From contig CAWKLN010000044.1 in assembly GCA_963850465.1 (NCBI GenBank), forward strand, positions 37,401 to 101,400: a DNA stretch of 64,000 bases. The letters run 5' to 3'. This DNA comes from an uncultured delta proteobacterium. Lineage in GTDB: Bacteria; Desulfobacterota; Desulfobacteria; Desulfobacterales; UBA5852. A program made the translations under genes and the position numbers. Every line of letters begins with the position of its first letter. Position 1 is the stretch's first letter. The notes under the pieces are model-generated. The model did no database searches, was not told where the DNA came from, and was given only the letters and a program-made list of their open reading frames with translations. Shown piece after piece: positions 7,221-62,578 of the stretch.

Positions 7221-7730
7221 TCAGCTGTGACAGGCCAGCCAGCAACCCAGATTGACCTTCTTCTCCGTGTGGCAGTTGATACAAAACCCCATCTTGAAAT
7301 GCTTGCCCTTGATGCGATCCTGGGTTTCCACCTGGTCGTGGCAGGATTGGCACTCGATTCCGAAACGGATGTGTCGCTGGTGGTTGAACAGCACATGCTC
7401 GGGCAGAAAGTTGGCCTTGACCCAGGGGGTCGGCGTCGCGGTGTCGAAATAGCGGTGTTCTTCCTGGATCCACCAGTGATTGGCGATGATGTAGTTGTGG
7501 CAGTAAAGGCATTTTTCCACCGGCGGCAGCCCGGGATGGTTCGAACGCCCCACATAGGGATGGCAGAACTGGCACTGGATCGCCTTGACGCCGGCATGCA
7601 GACGGTGGCTGAACGGGATCGGCTGTTCCGGCCCGATCATGCTCTGGGGCGGCGTATAGAAAAAGAAAAGAAAGGCCGCCACCAGGACAAGCGATACCGC
7701 CGTCCAGAAAAGCGGGGTGGCGTTGGCCAC
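7221..7730 (-). CDS. actA: Multiheme cytochrome c, ActA-like (ACIII pentaheme subunit)
   Basis: 169 aa with an N-terminal TM. Heme motifs are CQFCH, CLYCH, CQSCH and CINCH, plus a terminal CWLACH (CX3CH). The PIPFSHRLH lead-in is typical of ActA. GTG start. Confidence 0.75.
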   Translation of the reverse strand: MANATPLFWTAVSLVLVAAFLFFFYTPPQSMIGPEQPIPFSHRLHAGVKAIQCQFCHPYVGRSNHPGLPPVEKCLYCHNYIIANHWWIQEEHRYFDTATPTPWVKANFLPEHVLFNHQRHIRFGIECQSCHDQVETQDRIKGKHFKMGFCINCHTEKKVNLGCWLACHS

Positions 7731-43157: not shown

Positions 43158-44060
43158 TTAACAAGCACAAGCAGCCATCTCGTCAACAACGAAATCCCAG
43201 AGGGCGTCCGGGATCACATGCCCCATGCCGGGAATGATCTTCAATCGTGCCCCGGGGATGGCGTCCGCTGTAGCGTGCGCGCAGGCCACCGGTAAAAGGG
43301 GATCGGCATCGCCGTGAAGAACCAGGGTCGGCACCGTGATGCGGCGCAGCGCCGCCGTGCGATCGCCGGCATATAGAATGGCCGCCAGTTGCCGGGTGAT
43401 GCCGTCGGGGTTCAACCCATTCTCAAAATGCTTTTGCGCCCATCGGTACACACGCGCCTCGTTTATCGGGTATACCGGGCCGCTGATGATCCGGTAGGTC
43501 CGAACAAAGCTTTCAATATAGCCTTCCCGGTCCGCGGGAAAAGGGGTGAGGAGTACCTCCAGGGCCTCGGGCGTCGGCGGTGGTAAATCCGGGCGCCCCG
43601 TGCTGGACATGATGGATGTCAGAGATCGCACATGCGGCGTGAATTCCGACGCCATCACCTGGGCAATCATGCCGCCCATGGAAACGCCGGCCACATGCGC
43701 ACTTTGTATCCCGAGCCCTTGAAGCAACCCAATGCCATCCGCCGCCATGTCCTCCAGGGTATAGGGCGGCCGTTCAGGATGACCGCTCGCCAGGCTCTGC
43801 TCCAGGGCTGCCAGATCGGGAACACCCGCATTTGCGGGGCGGCCCGAAAGGCCGACATCCCGATTGTCAAACCGAATGACGTAGTAGCCCCGGTGCATCA
43901 GTTGCAGGCAAAACGCATCGTCCCAGGCCACCATCTGGGTACCCAGTCCCATGATCAGCAGAAGAGCAGGATCTGTCCGCCGGCCAAAGGCATGATAAGC
44001 CAAATCGATACCGTTAGCCGGAATCACGCCAGATTCATATGAGAAATGATTCGTCTGCAT
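43158..44060 (-). CDS. Alpha/beta hydrolase
   Basis: GVSMGG nucleophile elbow. The preferred start is MQTNHFSYESG at 44060, preceded by AGGAGG. The ORF track extends to 44123. Confidence 0.75.
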   Translation of the reverse strand: MQTNHFSYESGVIPANGIDLAYHAFGRRTDPALLLIMGLGTQMVAWDDAFCLQLMHRGYYVIRFDNRDVGLSGRPANAGVPDLAALEQSLASGHPERPPYTLEDMAADGIGLLQGLGIQSAHVAGVSMGGMIAQVMASEFTPHVRSLTSIMSSTGRPDLPPPTPEALEVLLTPFPADREGYIESFVRTYRIISGPVYPINEARVYRWAQKHFENGLNPDGITRQLAAILYAGDRTAALRRITVPTLVLHGDADPLLPVACAHATADAIPGARLKIIPGMGHVIPDALWDFVVDEMAACAC

Positions 44061-44138
44061 TTGACCTCCTGGGAACTCGGGCGGGAGGGGCCGCCACCCG
44101 CTGCCATTGCTCGGGGACGGCACGACACCTTAATTCCT

Positions 44139-44167
44139 TTGACATTAGGGGCATTTTCACATATGGA
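44139..44167 (+). promoter_or_regulatory. Candidate sigma70 promoter driving the riboswitch leader
   Basis: TTGACA (44139-44144), a 17-nt spacer, then TATGGA (44162-44167). Confidence 0.45.
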
Positions 44168-44199
44168 GAATGGTATCAGTAATAGTATCATTGCTCTCC

Positions 44200-44285
44200 C
44201 TTTCCGGAGAACGCCAAACCTGCCGCGAGGCAGGGACGGAAAGCCACGGGTCTTATGCGAGACAGCCGGGCCGCCGATGATTGCA
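44200..44285 (+). promoter_or_regulatory. GEMM-I (c-di-GMP-I class) riboswitch aptamer
   Basis: The + strand reads ACGCCAAACC-TGCC-GCGA-GGCA-GGGACGGAAAGCC-ACGGGTCT..AGACAGCCGGGCCGCCGATG. That is CAAACC, a 6-bp hairpin with a GNRA tetraloop, GGGACG(C/G)AAAGCC, and a CGG/CCG second stem. It matches the GEMM-I core as I recall it from Vc2. Confidence 0.75.
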
Positions 44286-44288
44286 AAC

Positions 44289-44332
44289 GGCCGAATCGCA
44301 TCAGACCTCTATACGATTCGGCCTTTTTTATT
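44289..44332 (+). terminator. Intrinsic terminator (riboswitch expression platform)
   Basis: GGCCGAATCG (44289-44298), a 15-nt loop, CGATTCGGCC (44314-44323), then TTTTTTATT. No + strand gene lies upstream, so it can only terminate the leader transcript. Confidence 0.7.
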
Positions 44333-44382
44333 GGTCGGCAAACAACTGAATGCACTGTGATCCCGCTGGCTGGAATAACACC

Positions 44383-46923
44383 ATGCAACTGAAAAGAATT
44401 CTTTTTTCGACCAGCTTTATTCTCTGCTTTATGGCAACGCTGCTGATCGTCAGCCTCCTGGGGGAATGGGCACCGCTTCAATTGCCGGAACTCAAACTAT
44501 ACGACCAGCTATTGCGTCTGAAGCCGGCATCCTCCCCGAACCGGGTGGTGGTCGTTGCCATTGACGATGCCAGTATCCAAGAATTGGGCATGTGGCCCTG
44601 GCCGCGCACGACGATGGCCGCGGGCCTCCGCCTTTTAACGGAATACGGTGCCGAGGCGGTGGCGCTGACCACGATTTACCCAGCTCCTTCAGCCAATCCG
44701 GCGTTGGAAGAACTAGGCCGCCTGCGGACAGCACTTCAGTCCGAAACCCGCGCCTCTCAACGGAAAGCCAACCGCCCTGTCGTACGTGAACTGCAAGAAA
44801 TCGAAAAACGGCTCGATGAAGACCAGGTCTTGATCAATGCCGTGCGCGCCGGGCACAATATTGTGCTCCCATTTCGTTTGGCGTTTACCGCTTCCGACAA
44901 CCCTGCCCCCCTAAGCGGTCTGCTCCGAATTAACGCGCTTACCAAGCCTATCCGACCACAACAAACATCGGAAACCCTGCCGGCACATATACAAACCATC
45001 CTTGACCGGATAAAGTCAAGGCCTCCCGCACCGGAACGTGTCACCGAAACCTTTCGCGGATTGGCCGGGAAAGCGGCCGCCATGGGCGCGATTAACCTGT
45101 CGGCCGATGCGGATGGCATCGTTAGGCAGATGCGGCTTCTGTGGCCCTACGAGGAGCTCTATCTCCCCTCGCTTTCCCTGCAGCTGGCCTTAAAGTCCCT
45201 GGGGCGTCCCTTCCGTAAAACCATCCCGGTCCCGGATGAATGCACCCCTTACGGTCTTTGTGTAAACGGTACTGCGATTCCCACCGATGAATATTTCCGT
45301 ATGCGAATCAGTTACCATCCACCGCCGATTCGCCTGAACCAGATCCCTTTTGCCGATCTTGTGTCGGGAAAAGTCGATCCGGCCATTTTCAAGAATCAGG
45401 TCGCGGTCATCGGCGTCACAGCGACAGACCTGACATCCACCTACCAAACCCCGTTTGCATCGCAGGCCACCCCCCCTGAAATCATCGCCGCCGCCGTAGA
45501 CACCATCCTACGTGCCGACCATTTGATCCGGCCCCGTTGGGCCCCGCTGGCCGAAGGGGCGGTCCTGCTTTATTTTTTATTGTTTCTCCTGATCGTCATC
45601 CCGAGGGTCAAACTCAATATCGGAGCCTTGATATTGATGGTCTTTTTGGCCACCTGCTGGGGCGCCGCCATTCTCGCCTTCATGCAGGCCGGGTTCTGGT
45701 TTCGCTTGTTCCCTCCCCTGATTCTCTGCCTCCTGGGGTTCGGAATGATTGCCTTCCGCCAGATCGCCCAACGTCTGAGGGCCGAAAATACGGAATTGAA
45801 TCGGTCTTTAGGACTCTCTTTTCAGACCCAGGGCATGCTCGATATGGCACTGGAAAAATTCATGCAGTGCCCCGCTGAAGACAAAACCGTACGGCGTCTG
45901 CTTTACCACCTCGGCCTGGATTTTGAGCGCAAACGCATGTCGGACAAGGCCCTGACGGTATACGAACGCATCTTAAAGGCCGGTGGGTACCGGGACGCCA
46001 AGCATCGCGTCCGCAAACTGAAAGCCGCAAACCACGCCGTAACCATGGCACCCGGTCTGGATGCACCTATCGCCACTTTGAAACTTACCGATACGGAAAC
46101 CAGGCCCACCTTCGGCCGCTATGAAATCCTGAAAGAACTTGGCCAGGGGGCGATGGGCACAGTCTATCTCGGCCTGGATCCCAAAATCAACCGTCAGGTG
46201 GCCATCAAAACGATGGGCTACAACAATATACCGTCCGAAGACCTGGAAGAGGTCAAAACACGGTTTATTCGAGAGGCCGAAGCCGCCGGCAAGTTGTCCC
46301 ATCCCAACATTGTCACCGTCTACGACATCGGCGAGGAACACGATACCGCTTATATGGCCATGGAACTCCTGGACGGCTTCGAACTCACCACCTATTGCCA
46401 GCGCGACCGCTTAAGGCCTGTCCCGGAAGTGCTCGACATCATGGCGGCCGTAGCGGATGCGCTGGGATATGCCCACAAGGCGGGGGTGATCCATCGTGAT
46501 ATCAAGCCGGCCAACATCATGCAGCTGAAGGACGGACGGGTCAAAGTGACCGATTTCGGCATCGCCAAAGTGATGGACAGCGCCAAAACCCGCACCGGCG
46601 TCGTGATGGGAACGCCCTCGTACATGTCGCCGGAACAGGTCGGTGGCAAAAAAGTCGATGGCCGCACAGACCTTTTTTCGCTAGGGATCGTATTTTATGA
46701 AATGCTGACCGGGTATAAACCTTTTGAGGGTGAGAACTTGACCACCTTGATGTACGCGATCGCCAAAGCCCCCTATCGGCCATTACCGGAAATCGTACCG
46801 GATATTCCATCCTGCTGTGTGGCCATCGTCAACAAGTTGTTGAACAAAAGCGTTTCCCGGCGCTATAAGACAGCAGAGCATGCACTGGAGGCCGTTCGCC
46901 AATGTCGCGGCGACCTCGGTTAA
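44383..46923 (+). CDS. CHASE2 sensor domain Ser/Thr protein kinase (Hanks type)
   Basis: N-terminal TM, a CHASE2-like periplasmic region ([21 protein letters not shown]) and a TM cluster. A TPR-like segment follows, then the kinase domain ([38 protein letters not shown]). The ORF track starts at 44350; MQLKRILF at 44383 is preferred. Confidence 0.85.
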
Positions 46924-46950: not shown

Positions 46951-47292
46951 ATGCTGGAAATAACACTGGAGCTTAAGAACACCCTTCTGGATACGTTCAA
47001 AATCGACAAGGACGAAATTACCATCGGCCGCAACACCGCCAATGATATTACGATCGACAACCTGGCGGTTTCCGACCGCCACGCCCGCATTGTCCGAGAT
47101 AAGACCGGCTATTATCTGGAAGATCTCAACAGCACCAACGGAACTTTTGTGGACGGACGCAAAATCAGCCGCATCGGTCTGGGAGGGCCGCAGGAAATCA
47201 AAATCGGCAAACATATCCTGGCGGTACAAACCCCGGAAAGTAAGAGCGCTGGTTCGGATTTCGCCCGCACCATGAAAATCGACCGTTCCTGA
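46951..47292 (+). CDS. FHA domain protein (likely kinase partner)
   Basis: 113 aa. TIGRNTANDITIDNLAVSDRHARI..DLNSTNGTFVDG. Starts 27 nt after the kinase stop. Confidence 0.85.
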   Translation: MLEITLELKNTLLDTFKIDKDEITIGRNTANDITIDNLAVSDRHARIVRDKTGYYLEDLNSTNGTFVDGRKISRIGLGGPQEIKIGKHILAVQTPESKSAGSDFARTMKIDRS

Positions 47293-47388: not shown

Positions 47389-47910
47389 TCAGGCGTCATC
47401 ATCGGCGAGTGTAAACCGCCAACGGCAAAACATATCATCTGGATGGCGGTCCGGCGGAGCGTAAAGGCAGGTCACCTCGATCCGTTCGTCAACCTCCCGC
47501 GCCAGCCCTGCAAACTCCCTTCGGTGCATTTCCTTGCAGTTGTATTCACCCAGGCCGCGCTTCAGTCGCGCCACCTGGGTTGGACAGGAGGGCACGCTGA
47601 GCAGCACCTCATCATCACGGCAATCGATCTCGTAGCCCACCAGCAGCGTCCAGGGGAACAACCGTAAAACCTGAACAAACCCTTCCAACCCCCTGTCGGT
47701 TATTCCGAAACGCGTTTTTAGGTCCCGGGCCGCCATACCCGCTACCCGGCCCCAAACGTCTTCGTTGATGGCCTCGGCCATCGGCTGGTCAAACCGATCC
47801 GCGACGGAAATGAACCAGAATGCATCCACAACGCGATAATGCCATAAAAGAAATTTCAAATACTGTCTGAGCTGGGGGGCCTCCAGGGATTCCAGCAGGT
47901 CTATCGCCAT
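47389..47910 (-). CDS. Hypothetical protein (possibly DUF6125-like)
   Basis: 173 aa, coding-like, with no catalytic motif recognised. Confidence 0.45.
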
Positions 47911-47992: not shown

Positions 47993-49018
47993 TTAAAAAT
48001 CGATTTTATCCTCCATGCCGCCATAGAGAAAGCTGCGCGGCACCTCGCTGTTCAGAAAGTCGTGCGGGAACCCGAGTTCCACCTGACTGATTTTATTCAA
48101 ACGCGTTATCTGCTCCGCATCCAAGGTGAACTCAAGGCAGGCCAGATTTTGCTTCACCTGTTCCGCCGTACGTGCACCGATGATCGGTATGACCTGCGGC
48201 TGCTGGCGGACCCAGTTAAGGGCGACCTGGGCAGGAAAACGCCCGATTTCGCCGGCCACCCGATCGACTTCCCGGGCGATGGAATAATTCTCGTCATCGA
48301 TTTCTTTGAAGGCCGCCTTATCCAGACGCCGTTCACTTTGACTGTCTGCGGAGGGCGCGTACTTGCCTGTCAGCAGGCCGCTTCCCAGCGGGGACCAGGC
48401 CGTGATGCCCAGGTTTAGGGCGCGGGCCATGGGGAGCAGCTCTCGCTCGGATGTCCGCTCCACTAGGCTGTACTCCACCTGCAGGGCTATAAAGCGGCTC
48501 CAGCCACGCAGTTCGGCCAGGGTATTGGCCCGAGACACGATCCAAGCCGGCGTGTCGGAAACACCGATATAGAGCACTTTGCCTGCGCGGACCATGTCAT
48601 CAAAAGCCCGCATGATCTCTTCAACCGGGGTGGTAAAATCCCAAGCGTGCAGCCAGTAAATGTCAACATAATCGACCTTCATGCGCTTGAGGCTGGCTTC
48701 CAGGGACTGAAGCATGTTCTTACGGTGATTCCCGGCGGCATTGGGGTCCGTTCCCGGGTTGCTGTTCGTGTATTTGGTTGCCAGGACAAACCGCTCCCGG
48801 TCTCCGGCCACCAGCTCGCCGACCAGTTTCTCGCTCGTGCCGTTGGTATACAAATCGGCGGTATCGATGAAATTCCCCCCGGCCGCGGTATAGGCTTCGA
48901 AAATGCGACGGCTTTCCTCGGGTGATGCGCCCCATCCCCAGTCATCGCCAAAAGTCATGGTGCCTAAGCAAATCTCGGAAACCCGCAGCCCGCTGTGGCC
49001 TAGTAACTTGTAGCGCAT
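47993..49018 (-). CDS. Aldo/keto reductase
   Basis: 341 aa. LGTMTFG, FIDTADLYTNGTSE and the overall AKR layout. Confidence 0.85.
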   Translation of the reverse strand: MRYKLLGHSGLRVSEICLGTMTFGDDWGWGASPEESRRIFEAYTAAGGNFIDTADLYTNGTSEKLVGELVAGDRERFVLATKYTNSNPGTDPNAAGNHRKNMLQSLEASLKRMKVDYVDIYWLHAWDFTTPVEEIMRAFDDMVRAGKVLYIGVSDTPAWIVSRANTLAELRGWSRFIALQVEYSLVERTSERELLPMARALNLGITAWSPLGSGLLTGKYAPSADSQSERRLDKAAFKEIDDENYSIAREVDRVAGEIGRFPAQVALNWVRQQPQVIPIIGARTAEQVKQNLACLEFTLDAEQITRLNKISQVELGFPHDFLNSEVPRSFLYGGMEDKIDF

Positions 49019-61732: not shown

Positions 61733-62578
61733 CTAGGATCCGCCTTTGTATGATGCGTAGCGGACGGCATTTTTGCCGTCCTGTTTGATGGCCCGCATGA
61801 GCTTTTCGGACATCTTGATCATGGCACGCGCCGCGGGCGGGACATGGTAGAAGGTGACCACGGCTACGCTGAATGTTATCGGCCAGCGCTTGTCTTCCAT
61901 TTCTTCCGCCAGCTGTTCGCCGATTTTGGGAATGACGATTTTAGCGGCGGCAAGATCCGTTTCCGGCAACAAGATGACAAACTCATCCCCCCCGAGACGT
62001 GCCACGCGGTCGGTGGCCCGCAAATACTTCATCATCGTGCGGGCCACCTTCTGTAGAACCATGTCGCCGACGGTATGGCCGAAACGGCTATTCACGCGCT
62101 TGAAATGATCCAGTCCGATATAGGCCAGCGTTACCGGACGTTTAAAGCGGGCACTCTTGCGGTGTTCGTTTTCTACGAGATTATAGAAGGCTCTGCTGTT
62201 CAAGGCACCGGTCAGAAAATCAACCAGTGACAAGGCCTGGGTTCGGGACTCGGCCTTGCGCAGGCGGGCCAGCAAGATGGCGAACACCCCGGCAATGGCC
62301 GTTAATGAAAAAAACTGCCACAACATGACCAGTGTGGAGGGAAACAGGCGTCCGGCATAATGGCCTGCCGCAAGCCAGGCCGCCGAACAGAATACGGCCA
62401 GCAACGTACCGGCCCCCGCGCCGGCATGCCAGGCCACGAAATAGACCGGCAGCAGGTAAATCGCCGTGAGCGTGACATGGCTGCCCGTCAGGTAGTCCAG
62501 CACCCCCACCACAGCGGCAGACGCCAGACCGATGGATAGAATGACGGCCTTGCCTTGTCCCTGTAATAAATCACGCAT
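61733..62578 (-). CDS. Membrane-anchored diguanylate cyclase (GGDEF) with an I-site
   Basis: ~110 aa of TM helices, then a GGDEF domain. RATDRVARLGGDEF gives an RxxD I-site at the canonical spacing before GGDEF. Confidence 0.85.
   Translation of the reverse strand: MRDLLQGQGKAVILSIGLASAAVVGVLDYLTGSHVTLTAIYLLPVYFVAWHAGAGAGTLLAVFCSAAWLAAGHYAGRLFPSTLVMLWQFFSLTAIAGVFAILLARLRKAESRTQALSLVDFLTGALNSRAFYNLVENEHRKSARFKRPVTLAYIGLDHFKRVNSRFGHTVGDMVLQKVARTMMKYLRATDRVARLGGDEFVILLPETDLAAAKIVIPKIGEQLAEEMEDKRWPITFSVAVVTFYHVPPAARAMIKMSEKLMRAIKQDGKNAVRYASYKGGS

Follow-up and report, generated by a model that had tools for sequence, protein, structure and literature searches.

The operon encoding a CHASE2 kinase and an FHA protein in the 64-kb window (the whole stretch of DNA analysed here) carries in its leader a genuine and strongly conserved GEMM-I-type aptamer, well beyond what chance would produce. 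The complete arrangement is probably a c-di-GMP-sensing leader acting as an OFF switch of this operon; the identity of the ligand, the site where transcription starts and the polarity of the switch are inferred. The coordinates of the features are collected in Table 1.

Table 1. Features of the kinase-FHA locus and its leader (positions are those of the window; Vc2 is the Vibrio cholerae aptamer).
Feature	Position	Strand	Basis
Alpha/beta hydrolase gene, divergent from the kinase gene	43158-44060	-	
Putative -35 hexamer TTGACA	44139-44144	+	sequence; invariant in 7 orthologous leaders with otherwise diverged flanks
Putative -10-like hexamer TATGGA	44162-44167	+	17-nt spacer after the -35
P1 5' strand AUCAUUG, pairing with 44275-44281	44187-44193	+	RNAalifold consensus; MFE of 44185-44283
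P0, extra hairpin UCUCC/GGAGA with 6-nt loop	44195-44210	+	consensus fold
G, equivalent of Vc2 G20	44213	+	RF03167 model position 10 in the cmscan alignment
P1a: C44214-G44239, C44215-G44238, 6-bp stem 44219-24/44229-34, GCGA tetraloop 44225-28	44214-44239	+	
Core block CAAACC	44215-44220	+	sequence
Core block GGGACGGAAAGCC	44233-44245	+	sequence
A, equivalent of Vc2 A47	44240	+	model position 37; mapping from the alignment to the Vc2 sequence
P2 hairpin, bulged A44246 and bulged A44264-G44265	44243-44271	+	consensus fold
Predicted anti-terminator, 5' half: GGGUCU 44248-53, AUGCGA 44255-60	44248-44260	+	upper P2 stem and loop
C, equivalent of Vc2 C92	44274	+	model position 75 in the cmscan alignment
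P1 3' strand CGAUGAU	44275-44281	+	consensus fold, MFE
Predicted intrinsic terminator: 10-bp stem, arms GGCCGAAUCG 44289-98 and CGAUUCGGCC 44314-23, 15-nt loop, T6 44324-29	44289-44329	+	folding, conservation
Predicted anti-terminator, 3' half: UCGCAU 44296-301, AGACCU 44303-08	44296-44308	+	end of terminator 5' arm and conserved loop
CHASE2 membrane sensor and Hanks-type Ser/Thr kinase, 846 aa	44383-46923	+	Pfam CHASE2 2e-48, Pkinase 1.4e-57
Stand-alone FHA-domain protein, 113 aa	46951-47292	+	Pfam FHA 6.9e-19

Inspection of the protein sequences found the GxGxxG, VAIK, HRD, DFG and SPE motifs of the kinase all intact and a GR...S..H...NG motif in the FHA protein; FHA domains bind phosphothreonine. 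A gap of 27 nt separates the kinase stop codon from the FHA gene, which is preceded by an AAGGAG ribosome-binding site. A kinase with complete catalytic motifs and an FHA domain are thus encoded together, and the Pfam assignments agree with the preliminary description of this DNA, which had placed a CHASE2 Ser/Thr-kinase and FHA operon downstream of the leader. No PP2C phosphatase gene is present in the operon of the window, which differs in this from distant homologues. A GGDEF protein is also encoded within the window, in line with c-di-GMP as the likely ligand.

The 322-nt intergenic region upstream of the kinase gene appears to comprise a promoter and a leader of about 208 nt belonging to the two-gene operon, with transcription probably starting near 44174-44176. 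The hexamers and spacing proposed earlier (TTGACA-17 nt-TATGGA) were found in place, with the -35 invariant in the orthologues, and the gene assignments bear out that the terminator has no plus-strand gene upstream to serve. In the -10 of the orthologues, the leading TA alone is conserved (TATCCT, TAATCT, TAGAAA, TATGCA, TATTGA). The leader promoter was not called in a simple consensus promoter scan because of its weak -10, which matches at 3/6 positions and has no final T; the leader terminator was not called in the corresponding terminator scan because its 15-nt loop exceeds the limit of 8. Despite these misses, conservation across orthologous leaders and folding argue for retaining both as putative elements. 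Two ORFs, 44046-44360 (+) and 44188-44481 (-), were rejected as a leader peptide or antisense gene, being unsupported and crossing the conserved RNA structure. A second GC-rich inverted repeat, GGUCGGC 44333-39/GCUGGCU 44365-71, recurs in orthologues and lies directly 5' of the Shine-Dalgarno sequence GGAA (44372-75).

The Rfam cmscan of the window returned a single match, at 44204-44279 of the plus strand, for which the best model was RF03167 ‘c-di-GMP-I-GGC’. The score is 68.6 bits (gathering score 59; E 4e-14), and all 80 model positions are covered. RF03167 forms the GEMM-I clan (Rfam CL00126) with RF01051 (gathering score 35 bits) and RF03168, and one further family of this clan, probably RF01051, also exceeded its own gathering score there. 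The threshold is therefore passed over the full model length, and kinase orthologues with 57-88% identity have an RF03167 match of 61.1-67.4 bits at the corresponding upstream position. The preliminary description had recognised a GEMM-I core by eye, and each element that it named lies where it was described, in agreement with the clan match. Its expectation of a plus-strand RF01051 match held for the clan and the gathering threshold; the best model proved to be the sister family RF03167 instead.

The consensus fold contains the three helices of the class and one addition. The seven pairs of P1 form in all of 12 leaders (100% paired) and include one compensatory change from A-U to U-A; the Rfam model places P1 at 44204-07 instead, with a G.G mismatch. 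The fold points to a correction of the model’s P1, which would be longer than the Rfam alignment shows and accompanied by an inserted hairpin, P0. The latter separates the P1 5' strand from the junction bearing the G20 equivalent and occurs only in clade A leaders; its cells are 90% paired, and two pairs change on both sides (C-G to U-A and G-C to C-G). The strands of P2, GCC-A-CGGGUCU and AGAC-AG-CCGGGC, form 11 pairs, 100% paired and invariant. The GNRA tetraloop (GCGA) capping P1a and the bulged A’s of P2 fit the GYRA-tetraloop/bulged-A type of GEMM described in PMC1950547. Within the kinase clade the aptamer is so conserved that its own covariation is almost nil (12 leaders). The conserved -35, aptamer and terminator follow one another ahead of the kinase ATG, as befits a 5'-UTR with an expression platform.

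In the Vc2 aptamer, A47 intercalates between the two ligand bases. Vc2 G20 contacts the Hoogsteen edge of one ligand base, the first, and C92 makes a Watson-Crick pair with the other, while A at position 20 marks cGAMP riboswitches (PMC6140456). The window has G44213, A44240 and C44274, that is, the c-di-GMP-I pocket and not the A at position 20 of the cGAMP (GEMM-Ib) class. With G/A/C at the G20, A47 and C92 positions, the predicted ligand is most likely c-di-GMP, a reading based on three nucleotides and gene context.

Pocket genotypes were compared in a set collected with a loose GEMM-I pattern, which comprised at least 120 loci from many phyla. The sole core departure of the window from the canonical aptamer is the flipped C21-G46 pair (canonical G21-C46) adjoining the pocket. 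This flipped pair was found in 28 and the canonical G-C in 93 of the 134 pattern matches listed; the flipped-pair subtype is frequent among Thermodesulfobacteriota and Campylobacterota. Position 20 is G in all 28 flipped-pair aptamers among the matches listed, which answers the question of c-di-GMP versus 3'3'-cGAMP left by the preliminary description in favour of a c-di-GMP genotype at the sequence level. The scan also picked up aptamers with A at position 20; one of them comes from a MAG of the Desulfuromonadales, to which Geobacter belongs and in which cGAMP riboswitches were described (PMC6140456).

A ligand other than c-di-GMP, either 3'3'-cGAMP or that of the RF03167 variant class, is quite unlikely. 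It would be in keeping with RF03167 and not RF01051 being the best model, with the pair adjoining the pocket being flipped throughout the subtype, with a host related to Desulfobacterales, given the cGAMP riboswitches of the related Desulfuromonadales, and with the bispecificity reported for some G20 aptamers (PMC6140456). Against it stand the G, not A, at position 20, the A at position 37 as in canonical aptamers and the retained C92. The RF03167 consensus has G at position 37 beside a G-C pair at 11-36; the window has A, where the match line is blank (negative score), beside C-G. The same A and C-G are found in all 28 subtype aptamers, and the consensus ‘CG’ is present in 0/134 of the pattern matches listed. 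Although 18/20 flipped-pair-subtype aptamers best fit RF03167, RF01051 itself is the best model for two others, L041 (55.6 bits) and L005 (44.7 bits).

The c-di-GMP-I-GGC variant family reportedly originates from Weinberg et al. (2017, PNAS), and from the model consensus we take ‘GGC’ in its name to stand for G20/G47/C92. If so, the G/A/C genotype of the window would lack the name-giving change of RF03167. Since RF03167 matches mostly carry canonical G/A/C pockets, the label is no evidence of altered specificity, and for annotation the family label of the window is at odds with its pocket genotype.

The genes associated with the subtype bear on the same question. Elsewhere, the identical aptamer core precedes genes for adhesins, PEP-CTERM proteins, a chemoreceptor (MCP) and cytochromes, and related flipped-pair aptamers precede those for an HD-GYP-type (HD_5) protein and a pseudopilin; the same-subtype targets also comprise a multihaem cytochrome, a TPS exoprotein and a PAS-LuxR regulator. 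Both target sets resemble a classic c-di-GMP regulon, and the phosphodiesterase-like HD-GYP-type protein, adhesins, pilin and MCP argue against another ligand. The same-subtype targets match the original GEMM target list, which names histidine kinases, PAS, HAMP, HD-GYP and GGDEF, with the Hanks kinase absent (PMC1950547). There is a slim chance that the flipped-pair subtype as a whole, which Rfam places in the little-characterised RF03167 variant family, has a specificity other than c-di-GMP, e.g., for another cyclic or linear dinucleotide. The kinase-FHA operon would then be the main output, in these sediment bacteria, of a molecule not yet tied to riboswitches.

With c-di-GMP as the preferred ligand, the expression platform was considered. 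The 10-bp GC hairpin and T6 noted earlier before the start codon were recovered, with a folding energy of -18.4 kcal/mol and z = -4.27; the T6 ends 53 nt before the kinase ATG at 44383. This terminator is 100% paired in 12 leaders, with changes from G-C to G.U only, and is present in clade B leaders too.

Folding of the aptamer and terminator alternatives, a check suggested in the preliminary description, brought out a predicted anti-terminator in which part of P2 pairs with the terminator loop. Its duplex has an energy of -17.4 kcal/mol, matched by 0/300 loop shuffles, and represents the MFE of the nascent transcript. For a transcript ending before the terminator 3' arm, the anti-terminator fold reaches -47.4 kcal/mol and the apo aptamer -39.6 kcal/mol; once the leader is complete, the terminator state has -58.5 vs. 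-49.8 kcal/mol. The gain of the alternative fold is -12.0 kcal/mol, compared with -5.1 ± 1.7 kcal/mol with shuffled loops (0/60 shuffles as good). The terminator-loop motif GCAUCAGAC is conserved across leaders, and its use by the anti-terminator would account for a conservation that is otherwise unexplained. The anti-terminator cells are 85% paired in the 12 clade A leaders. Clade B leaders have a different predicted anti-terminator that uses the same terminator loop, with GCUGCCGAUG pairing with CAUCGGACAGC. Short candidate pairings of the P1 3' strand with the 5' arm of the terminator (CGAU/AUCG, GGCCG/CGGCC, GAUG/CAUC) were discarded as main anti-terminator elements, being 4-5 bp long and, by eye, unconserved.

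These folds suggest the following mechanism. In the ligand-free state, the upper part of P2 and its loop would pair during transcription with the 3' half of the anti-terminator, and GCCG 44265-68 would also pair with CGGC 44288-91. This would disrupt the aptamer and sequester the terminator 5' arm, so that polymerase reads into the kinase gene. Once bound, c-di-GMP would lock P1, P1a and P2 to one another; the hairpin of the terminator could then form and transcription would end at its T-run. High c-di-GMP would hence mean less kinase and FHA protein, which would link the second messenger with signalling by Ser/Thr phosphorylation.

The model thus predicts a transcriptional OFF switch. The opposite polarity, in which c-di-GMP would prevent termination and raise kinase and FHA levels through the same riboswitch, is unlikely. 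Both ON and OFF switches are known among c-di-GMP-I riboswitches. Moreover, covariation was sought for the anti-terminator in the 12 clade A leaders and no pair was changed on both sides, and in 5/20 leaders (L124, L125, L009, L212 and L167) the anti-terminator is weak, no better than shuffled controls; the fold-based polarity is therefore not secure. On the other hand, aptamer and terminator occupy separate stretches of the leader, and because the terminator lies wholly outside, the ligand-locked aptamer would leave it free. The sole strong alternative pairing breaks P2 and ties up the terminator 5' arm, and in the predicted folds of the leader no pairing was found that would let the folded aptamer keep the terminator from forming.

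It is highly improbable that the hairpin and T-run are not a regulated attenuator at all, the terminator being leaky or incidental and the aptamer acting on translation or mRNA stability, or being a relic. The GC-rich repeat just 5' of the Shine-Dalgarno sequence, recurrent in orthologues, would suit control at that level, but no pairing of the aptamer with the Shine-Dalgarno region appeared in the predicted folds. The terminator arms, T-run and loop are kept across leaders whose surroundings are unalignable. A relic is unlikely because the aptamer has hardly changed over a divergence of the kinase to 57% identity.

Attenuation by the aptamer, the favoured reading, is accompanied by a stable association with the operon. 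About 20 independent contigs carry the same -35, aptamer and terminator ahead of an orthologous kinase-FHA pair, with kinase identity down to about 57%. The orthologous leaders compared keep a near-identical aptamer and an invariant TTGACA amid flanks that cannot be aligned, and wherever an orthologous contig extends far enough, the FHA gene comes next after the kinase. A search with the 39-nt aptamer core gave 104 exact matches, including the window and the previously found orthologues, from which about 87 downstream ORFs could be clustered; the kinase accounted for 25 of them, which makes the kinase-FHA operon the most frequent single target of the exact core in the metagenomic sample. The Desulfobacterales-like placement of the host is based on two labelled relatives, L009 from a Desulfobacteraceae MAG and P0034 from Desulfosarcina/Desulfobacterales. 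An extension of the control to distant CHASE2 kinases was excluded, as the genes of four of them gave no Rfam match: L127 (44% identity, encoded behind a YcaO gene) and L222, L223 and L224 (43-46% identity, with a PP2C gene next and an FHA gene nearby).

Comparison with known systems places the leader within the GEMM-I group. With RF01051 and Vc2, it shares the three-helix junction, the CAAACC and GGGACG..AAAGCC blocks, the GNRA-capped P1a, the bulged-A P2 (GYRA type, PMC1950547), the G/A/C pocket and the 5'-UTR site, and sister copies of the window aptamer target signal-transduction and surface genes. It differs from them in the C-G pair beside the pocket (canonical G-C), the inserted P0, the 7-bp P1, the higher score with RF03167 and the Hanks kinase + FHA target, absent from the published target lists searched. 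In the sequence of P1a and P2, the window is very close to the RF03167 consensus, but it has C-G and A where that consensus has G-C at 11-36 and G at 37. The c-AMP-GMP (GEMM-Ib) riboswitches of Geobacter, such as Gs1761, have the same fold, belong to the same clan, use terminator-based platforms and come from a related host lineage (former Deltaproteobacteria); they have A at position 20 (PMC6140456), whereas the window and all its orthologues have G.

The Cd1 riboswitch in the flgB leader of Clostridioides difficile is a c-di-GMP-I OFF switch. Its ligand favours an intrinsic terminator 3' of the aptamer and turns the operon off, which is also the predicted logic of the window. The two differ in host phylum and target, and the predicted anti-terminator of the window uses P2 and the terminator loop.

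Known c-di-GMP riboswitches control genes for motility, adhesion, pili, cytochromes and c-di-GMP turnover. A full-text literature search gave no relevant paper that joins a riboswitch with CHASE2, or GEMM with a threonine kinase; like the target list of PMC1950547, this agrees with the earlier remark that no such riboswitch target was known. The kind of RNA switch is known, and its conserved target class, a Hanks kinase with FHA, has apparently not been described before. If the model is true, the leader would provide a direct link at the RNA level between second-messenger signalling and a eukaryotic-like Ser/Thr kinase with its FHA partner. The arrangement of aptamer and operon has outlasted divergence of the kinase to about 57% identity and rebuilding of the expression platform. 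This survival, together with the frequency of the target, suggests that the link between riboswitch and kinase probably matters to the physiology of marine and sediment Desulfobacterales.

Rfam cmscan gave a single match in the 64-kb window, namely RF03167 (c-di-GMP-I-GGC) on the + strand at 44204-44279, covering model positions 1-80 of 80 and scoring 68.6 bits (gathering score 59; E = 4e-14). A second, overlapping family of the same clan also exceeded its own gathering score at the aptamer. The preliminary description had called a GEMM-I riboswitch and expected RF01051 (c-di-GMP-I); the clan assignment (CL00126) holds, and the best model is RF03167 instead. The promoter, CAAACC block, GCGA-capped stem, core block, second stem and terminator that it had read by eye are all present at the positions it gave. 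A consensus scan called neither promoter nor terminator in the leader, the former because the -10 element is weak and the latter because the loop is 15 nt long. In isolation, the terminator hairpin has a folding energy of -18.4 kcal/mol (z = -4.27), and its T6 run lies 53 nt from the kinase ATG.

Features of the riboswitch leader and neighbouring genes
Feature	Position	Strand	Basis or remark
alpha/beta hydrolase gene, divergent	43158-44060	-	Pfam
Promoter -35, TTGACA	44139-44144	+	sequence reading
Promoter -10, TATGGA	44162-44167	+	17 nt 3' of -35
P1, 7 bp	AUCAUUG 44187-93 / CGAUGAU 44275-81	+	RNAalifold, MFE
P0, inserted hairpin	44195-99 / 44206-10	+	RNAalifold, MFE
P1a, with 6-bp stem and GCGA loop	C44214-G44239, C44215-G44238	+	RNAalifold, MFE
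Core block CAAACC	44215-20	+	sequence reading
GCGA loop closing 6-bp stem	44225-28	+	sequence reading
Core block GGGACGGAAAGCC	44233-45	+	sequence reading
P2	44243-71	+	bulged A44246 and A44264-G44265
Alternative fold, upper P2 and its loop	GGGUCU 44248-53, AUGCGA 44255-60	+	predicted
Alternative fold, terminator loop and 5'-arm end	AGACCU 44303-08, UCGCAU 44296-301	+	predicted
Terminator, 10-bp hairpin	44289-98 / 44314-23	+	T6 at 44324-29
Second inverted repeat	GGUCGGC 44333-44339 / GCUGGCU 44365-44371	+	7 pairs, 3 G.U
Shine-Dalgarno GGAA	44372-75	+	
CHASE2 + Pkinase gene	44383-46923	+	Pfam: CHASE2 2e-48, Pkinase 1.4e-57
FHA gene	46951-47292	+	Pfam 6.9e-19
DUF6125 gene	47389-47910	-	convergent to kinase-FHA operon
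Aldo/keto reductase gene	47993-49018	-	convergent to kinase-FHA operon
Membrane protein gene, 281 aa, GGDEF intact	61733-62578	-	Pfam 9.5e-31

The kinase, FHA and divergent hydrolase genes proposed earlier were borne out by Pfam. The kinase has the full set of catalytic motifs, and the FHA gene starts 27 nt past it with an AAGGAG site of its own. Gene callers tend to push the kinase start upstream over the leader (L126:3001-5685; window 44350-46923): the JGI call is 857 aa from ATG 44350, and the conserved start is at 44383. The GC-rich second inverted repeat, which might affect translation initiation, sits between the terminator and the Shine-Dalgarno site; orthologous leaders carry like repeats (GGCCGGCC / GCCGGC). 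The window also encodes an intact GGDEF protein, so the genome can presumably make c-di-GMP.

The aptamer structure was derived from RNAalifold of the leaders and from the MFE of 44185-44283, which agree. Rfam places the 5' strand of P1 at 44204-07, with a G.G mismatch; the 7-bp P1 is the better fit. The whole structure is 98.6% paired across 12 clade A leaders, with compensatory changes at two pairs of P0 and one of P1. The aptamer core never varies in clade A, so covariation speaks neither for nor against it. At the base of P2 (44242/44272), every clade A leader has an A.C mismatch; clade B and the Rfam consensus have an A-U pair there. Of the two GEMM types originally distinguished, the window aptamer fits that with a GYRA tetraloop and bulged A residues in P2 (PMC1950547).

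The preliminary description left the choice between c-di-GMP and 3'3'-cGAMP to the discriminating pocket base. In the Vibrio cholerae Vc2 aptamer, A47 intercalates between both ligand bases. One ligand guanine is contacted by G20 at its Hoogsteen edge, and the other makes a Watson-Crick pair with C92; in cGAMP riboswitches, A replaces G20 (PMC6140456). In the cmscan alignment, the equivalents of G20, A47 and C92 are G44213, A44240 and C44274. Judged by sequence, the pocket is thus of the c-di-GMP genotype, and the aptamer is not of the cGAMP type. Nor does its pocket make it a 'GGC' variant, the Rfam label notwithstanding: the RF03167 consensus has G-C at 11-36 and G at 37, compared with C-G and A in the window, and the match line is blank at 37. 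We infer that the name-giving change of RF03167 is G at the A47 position, which the window lacks. As a member of the GEMM-I clan, the window aptamer combines the canonical pocket with a flipped neighbouring pair (C21-G46) and a lineage-specific inserted hairpin.

A regex survey of pockets covered 134 GEMM-I-like genome matches. Among the matches listed, 93 were canonical (GG...CA) and 28 had the window-type flipped pair (GC...GA), mostly in Thermodesulfobacteriota, 'delta proteobacteria' and Campylobacterota; eight had A at position 20 (one Desulfuromonadales MAG, the others mostly Bacillota MAGs), and none had the RF03167 consensus genotype. Of 20 flipped-pair aptamers with the canonical G/A/C pocket at genome loci (L002-L107), Rfam filed 18 under RF03167 and the other two under RF01051. 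The label therefore tracks overall sequence similarity and is a poor guide to the pocket. Genes behind flipped-pair genome aptamers encode an HD_5 (HD-GYP-type) protein, a pseudopilin, DUF11 and cadherin-like adhesins, a multihaem cytochrome, KatG and DUF4833. Those behind the identical 39-nt core encode giant adhesins, a secreted nuclease, PEP-CTERM proteins, a TPS exoprotein, a PAS-LuxR regulator, MCP, subtilase and cytochrome c3. These targets resemble the classic GEMM/c-di-GMP regulon and point the same way as the pocket genotype; that the flipped-pair subtype binds some other ligand seems very improbable. Tandem GEMM-I aptamers, two same-strand copies of the identical 39-nt core offset by about 216 nt (L195:123-161 and 339-377; L210:7372-7410 and 7588-7626), precede an unannotated ORF family of ~190-290 aa, for which Pfam gave no match.

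Kinase orthologues were retrieved by protein database search and their contigs compared. The order of a ~400 nt intergenic region, kinase and FHA is shared (kinase identity 88, 75, 72, 69 and 57%), and RF03167 matches of 61-67 bits occupy the same place 5' of the kinase in all of these contigs. The FHA genes encode 110-113 aa and are present wherever the contig extends that far. The intergenic alignment shows little or no variation in TTGACA, the aptamer, the two arms of the terminator and its T-run; flanks outside the -35 element, aptamer and terminator are unalignable. DUF6125 and the aldo/keto reductase are found at the corresponding place on most contigs of the orthologues (L121, L123, L125), so synteny reaches beyond the operon.

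A metagenome scan found the exact 39-nt core at 94 loci (104 matches among the loci compared, counting the window and previously found orthologues). The kinase forms the biggest single cluster, 25 of ~87 clusterable ORFs 3' of the core, with FHA following on every contig long enough. Clade A leaders are window-like (kinase identity 63-100%); clade B kinases are ~57% identical, and their leaders differ in the terminator loop and in how the region 5' of the aptamer is built. Clade B kinase calls (870-894 aa) start within or 5' of the aptamer. Rfam found no riboswitch in the leaders of four distant CHASE2 kinases (43-46% identity), one of which lies behind a YcaO gene and three of which are each followed by PP2C with FHA nearby. 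Conservation at orthologues, with none at distant kinases, argues on comparative sequence grounds that the association is real, under selection and confined to one lineage. Labelled relatives, L009 (Desulfobacteraceae MAG) and P0034 (Desulfosarcina / Desulfobacterales), place this lineage in Desulfobacterales. In the comparison loci L222, L223 and L224 (kinase from 2501), a PP2C phosphatase gene directly follows the kinase and adjoins a larger FHA gene (232 aa, same strand, in L222 and L224; 337 aa, opposite strand, in L223); the riboswitch-controlled operon is without PP2C, and its FHA protein has just 113 aa.

The aptamer ends at 44281 and the terminator starts at 44289, so a ligand-locked aptamer would leave the terminator free to form. 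The predicted alternative duplex, GGGUCU with AGACCU and AUGCGA with UCGCAU, pairs 12 of 13 positions at -17.4 kcal/mol, a value matched by none of 300 loop shuffles, with further pairing of GCCG 44265-68 with CGGC 44288-91. In RNA ending before the terminator 3' arm, the anti-terminator (-47.4 kcal/mol, MFE) is favoured over the apo aptamer (-39.6); in the full leader, the terminator state (-58.5) is favoured over the anti-terminator (-49.8). These modelled energies fit the way in which kinetically controlled transcriptional OFF switches are commonly built. Use of the terminator loop GCAUCAGAC in anti-terminator pairing would explain its conservation. Among 20 distinct leaders, the alternative fold gains 10-13 kcal/mol in 14; at most 5% of loop-shuffled controls were as good in nine of those, the other five being less clear-cut, and in five of the 20 it was no better than shuffles. 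No anti-terminator pair with changes on both sides was found among the leaders. In clade B, the same loop is predicted to be used otherwise: GCUGCCGAUG, which comprises the P2 end, C92 and the 3' strand of P1, would pair with CAUCGGACAGC. Without ligand, the anti-terminator would form first on nascent RNA in preference to the apo aptamer; high c-di-GMP would lock the aptamer, cause termination and lower kinase and FHA protein levels. Confidence in the OFF direction is moderate; confidence that the leader is a functional cyclic-dinucleotide riboswitch for the kinase-FHA operon is high.

GEMM-I is famed for the variety of its targets, so a kinase target is plausible rather than startling to a specialist. 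Full-text searches returned no paper tying GEMM to a Ser/Thr kinase and no relevant one tying a riboswitch to CHASE2, the two text matches for the latter being a survey of cyanobacterial cyclases and phosphodiesterases and a preprint on RNA design. Histidine kinases, PAS, HAMP, HD-GYP and GGDEF appear in the published table of GEMM targets and Hanks kinases do not (PMC1950547), in line with the earlier remark that no such target is known. The Hanks kinase-FHA operon is apparently an unreported, conserved GEMM-I target class, and the arrangement offers a clean, testable link from c-di-GMP to Ser/Thr phosphorylation.
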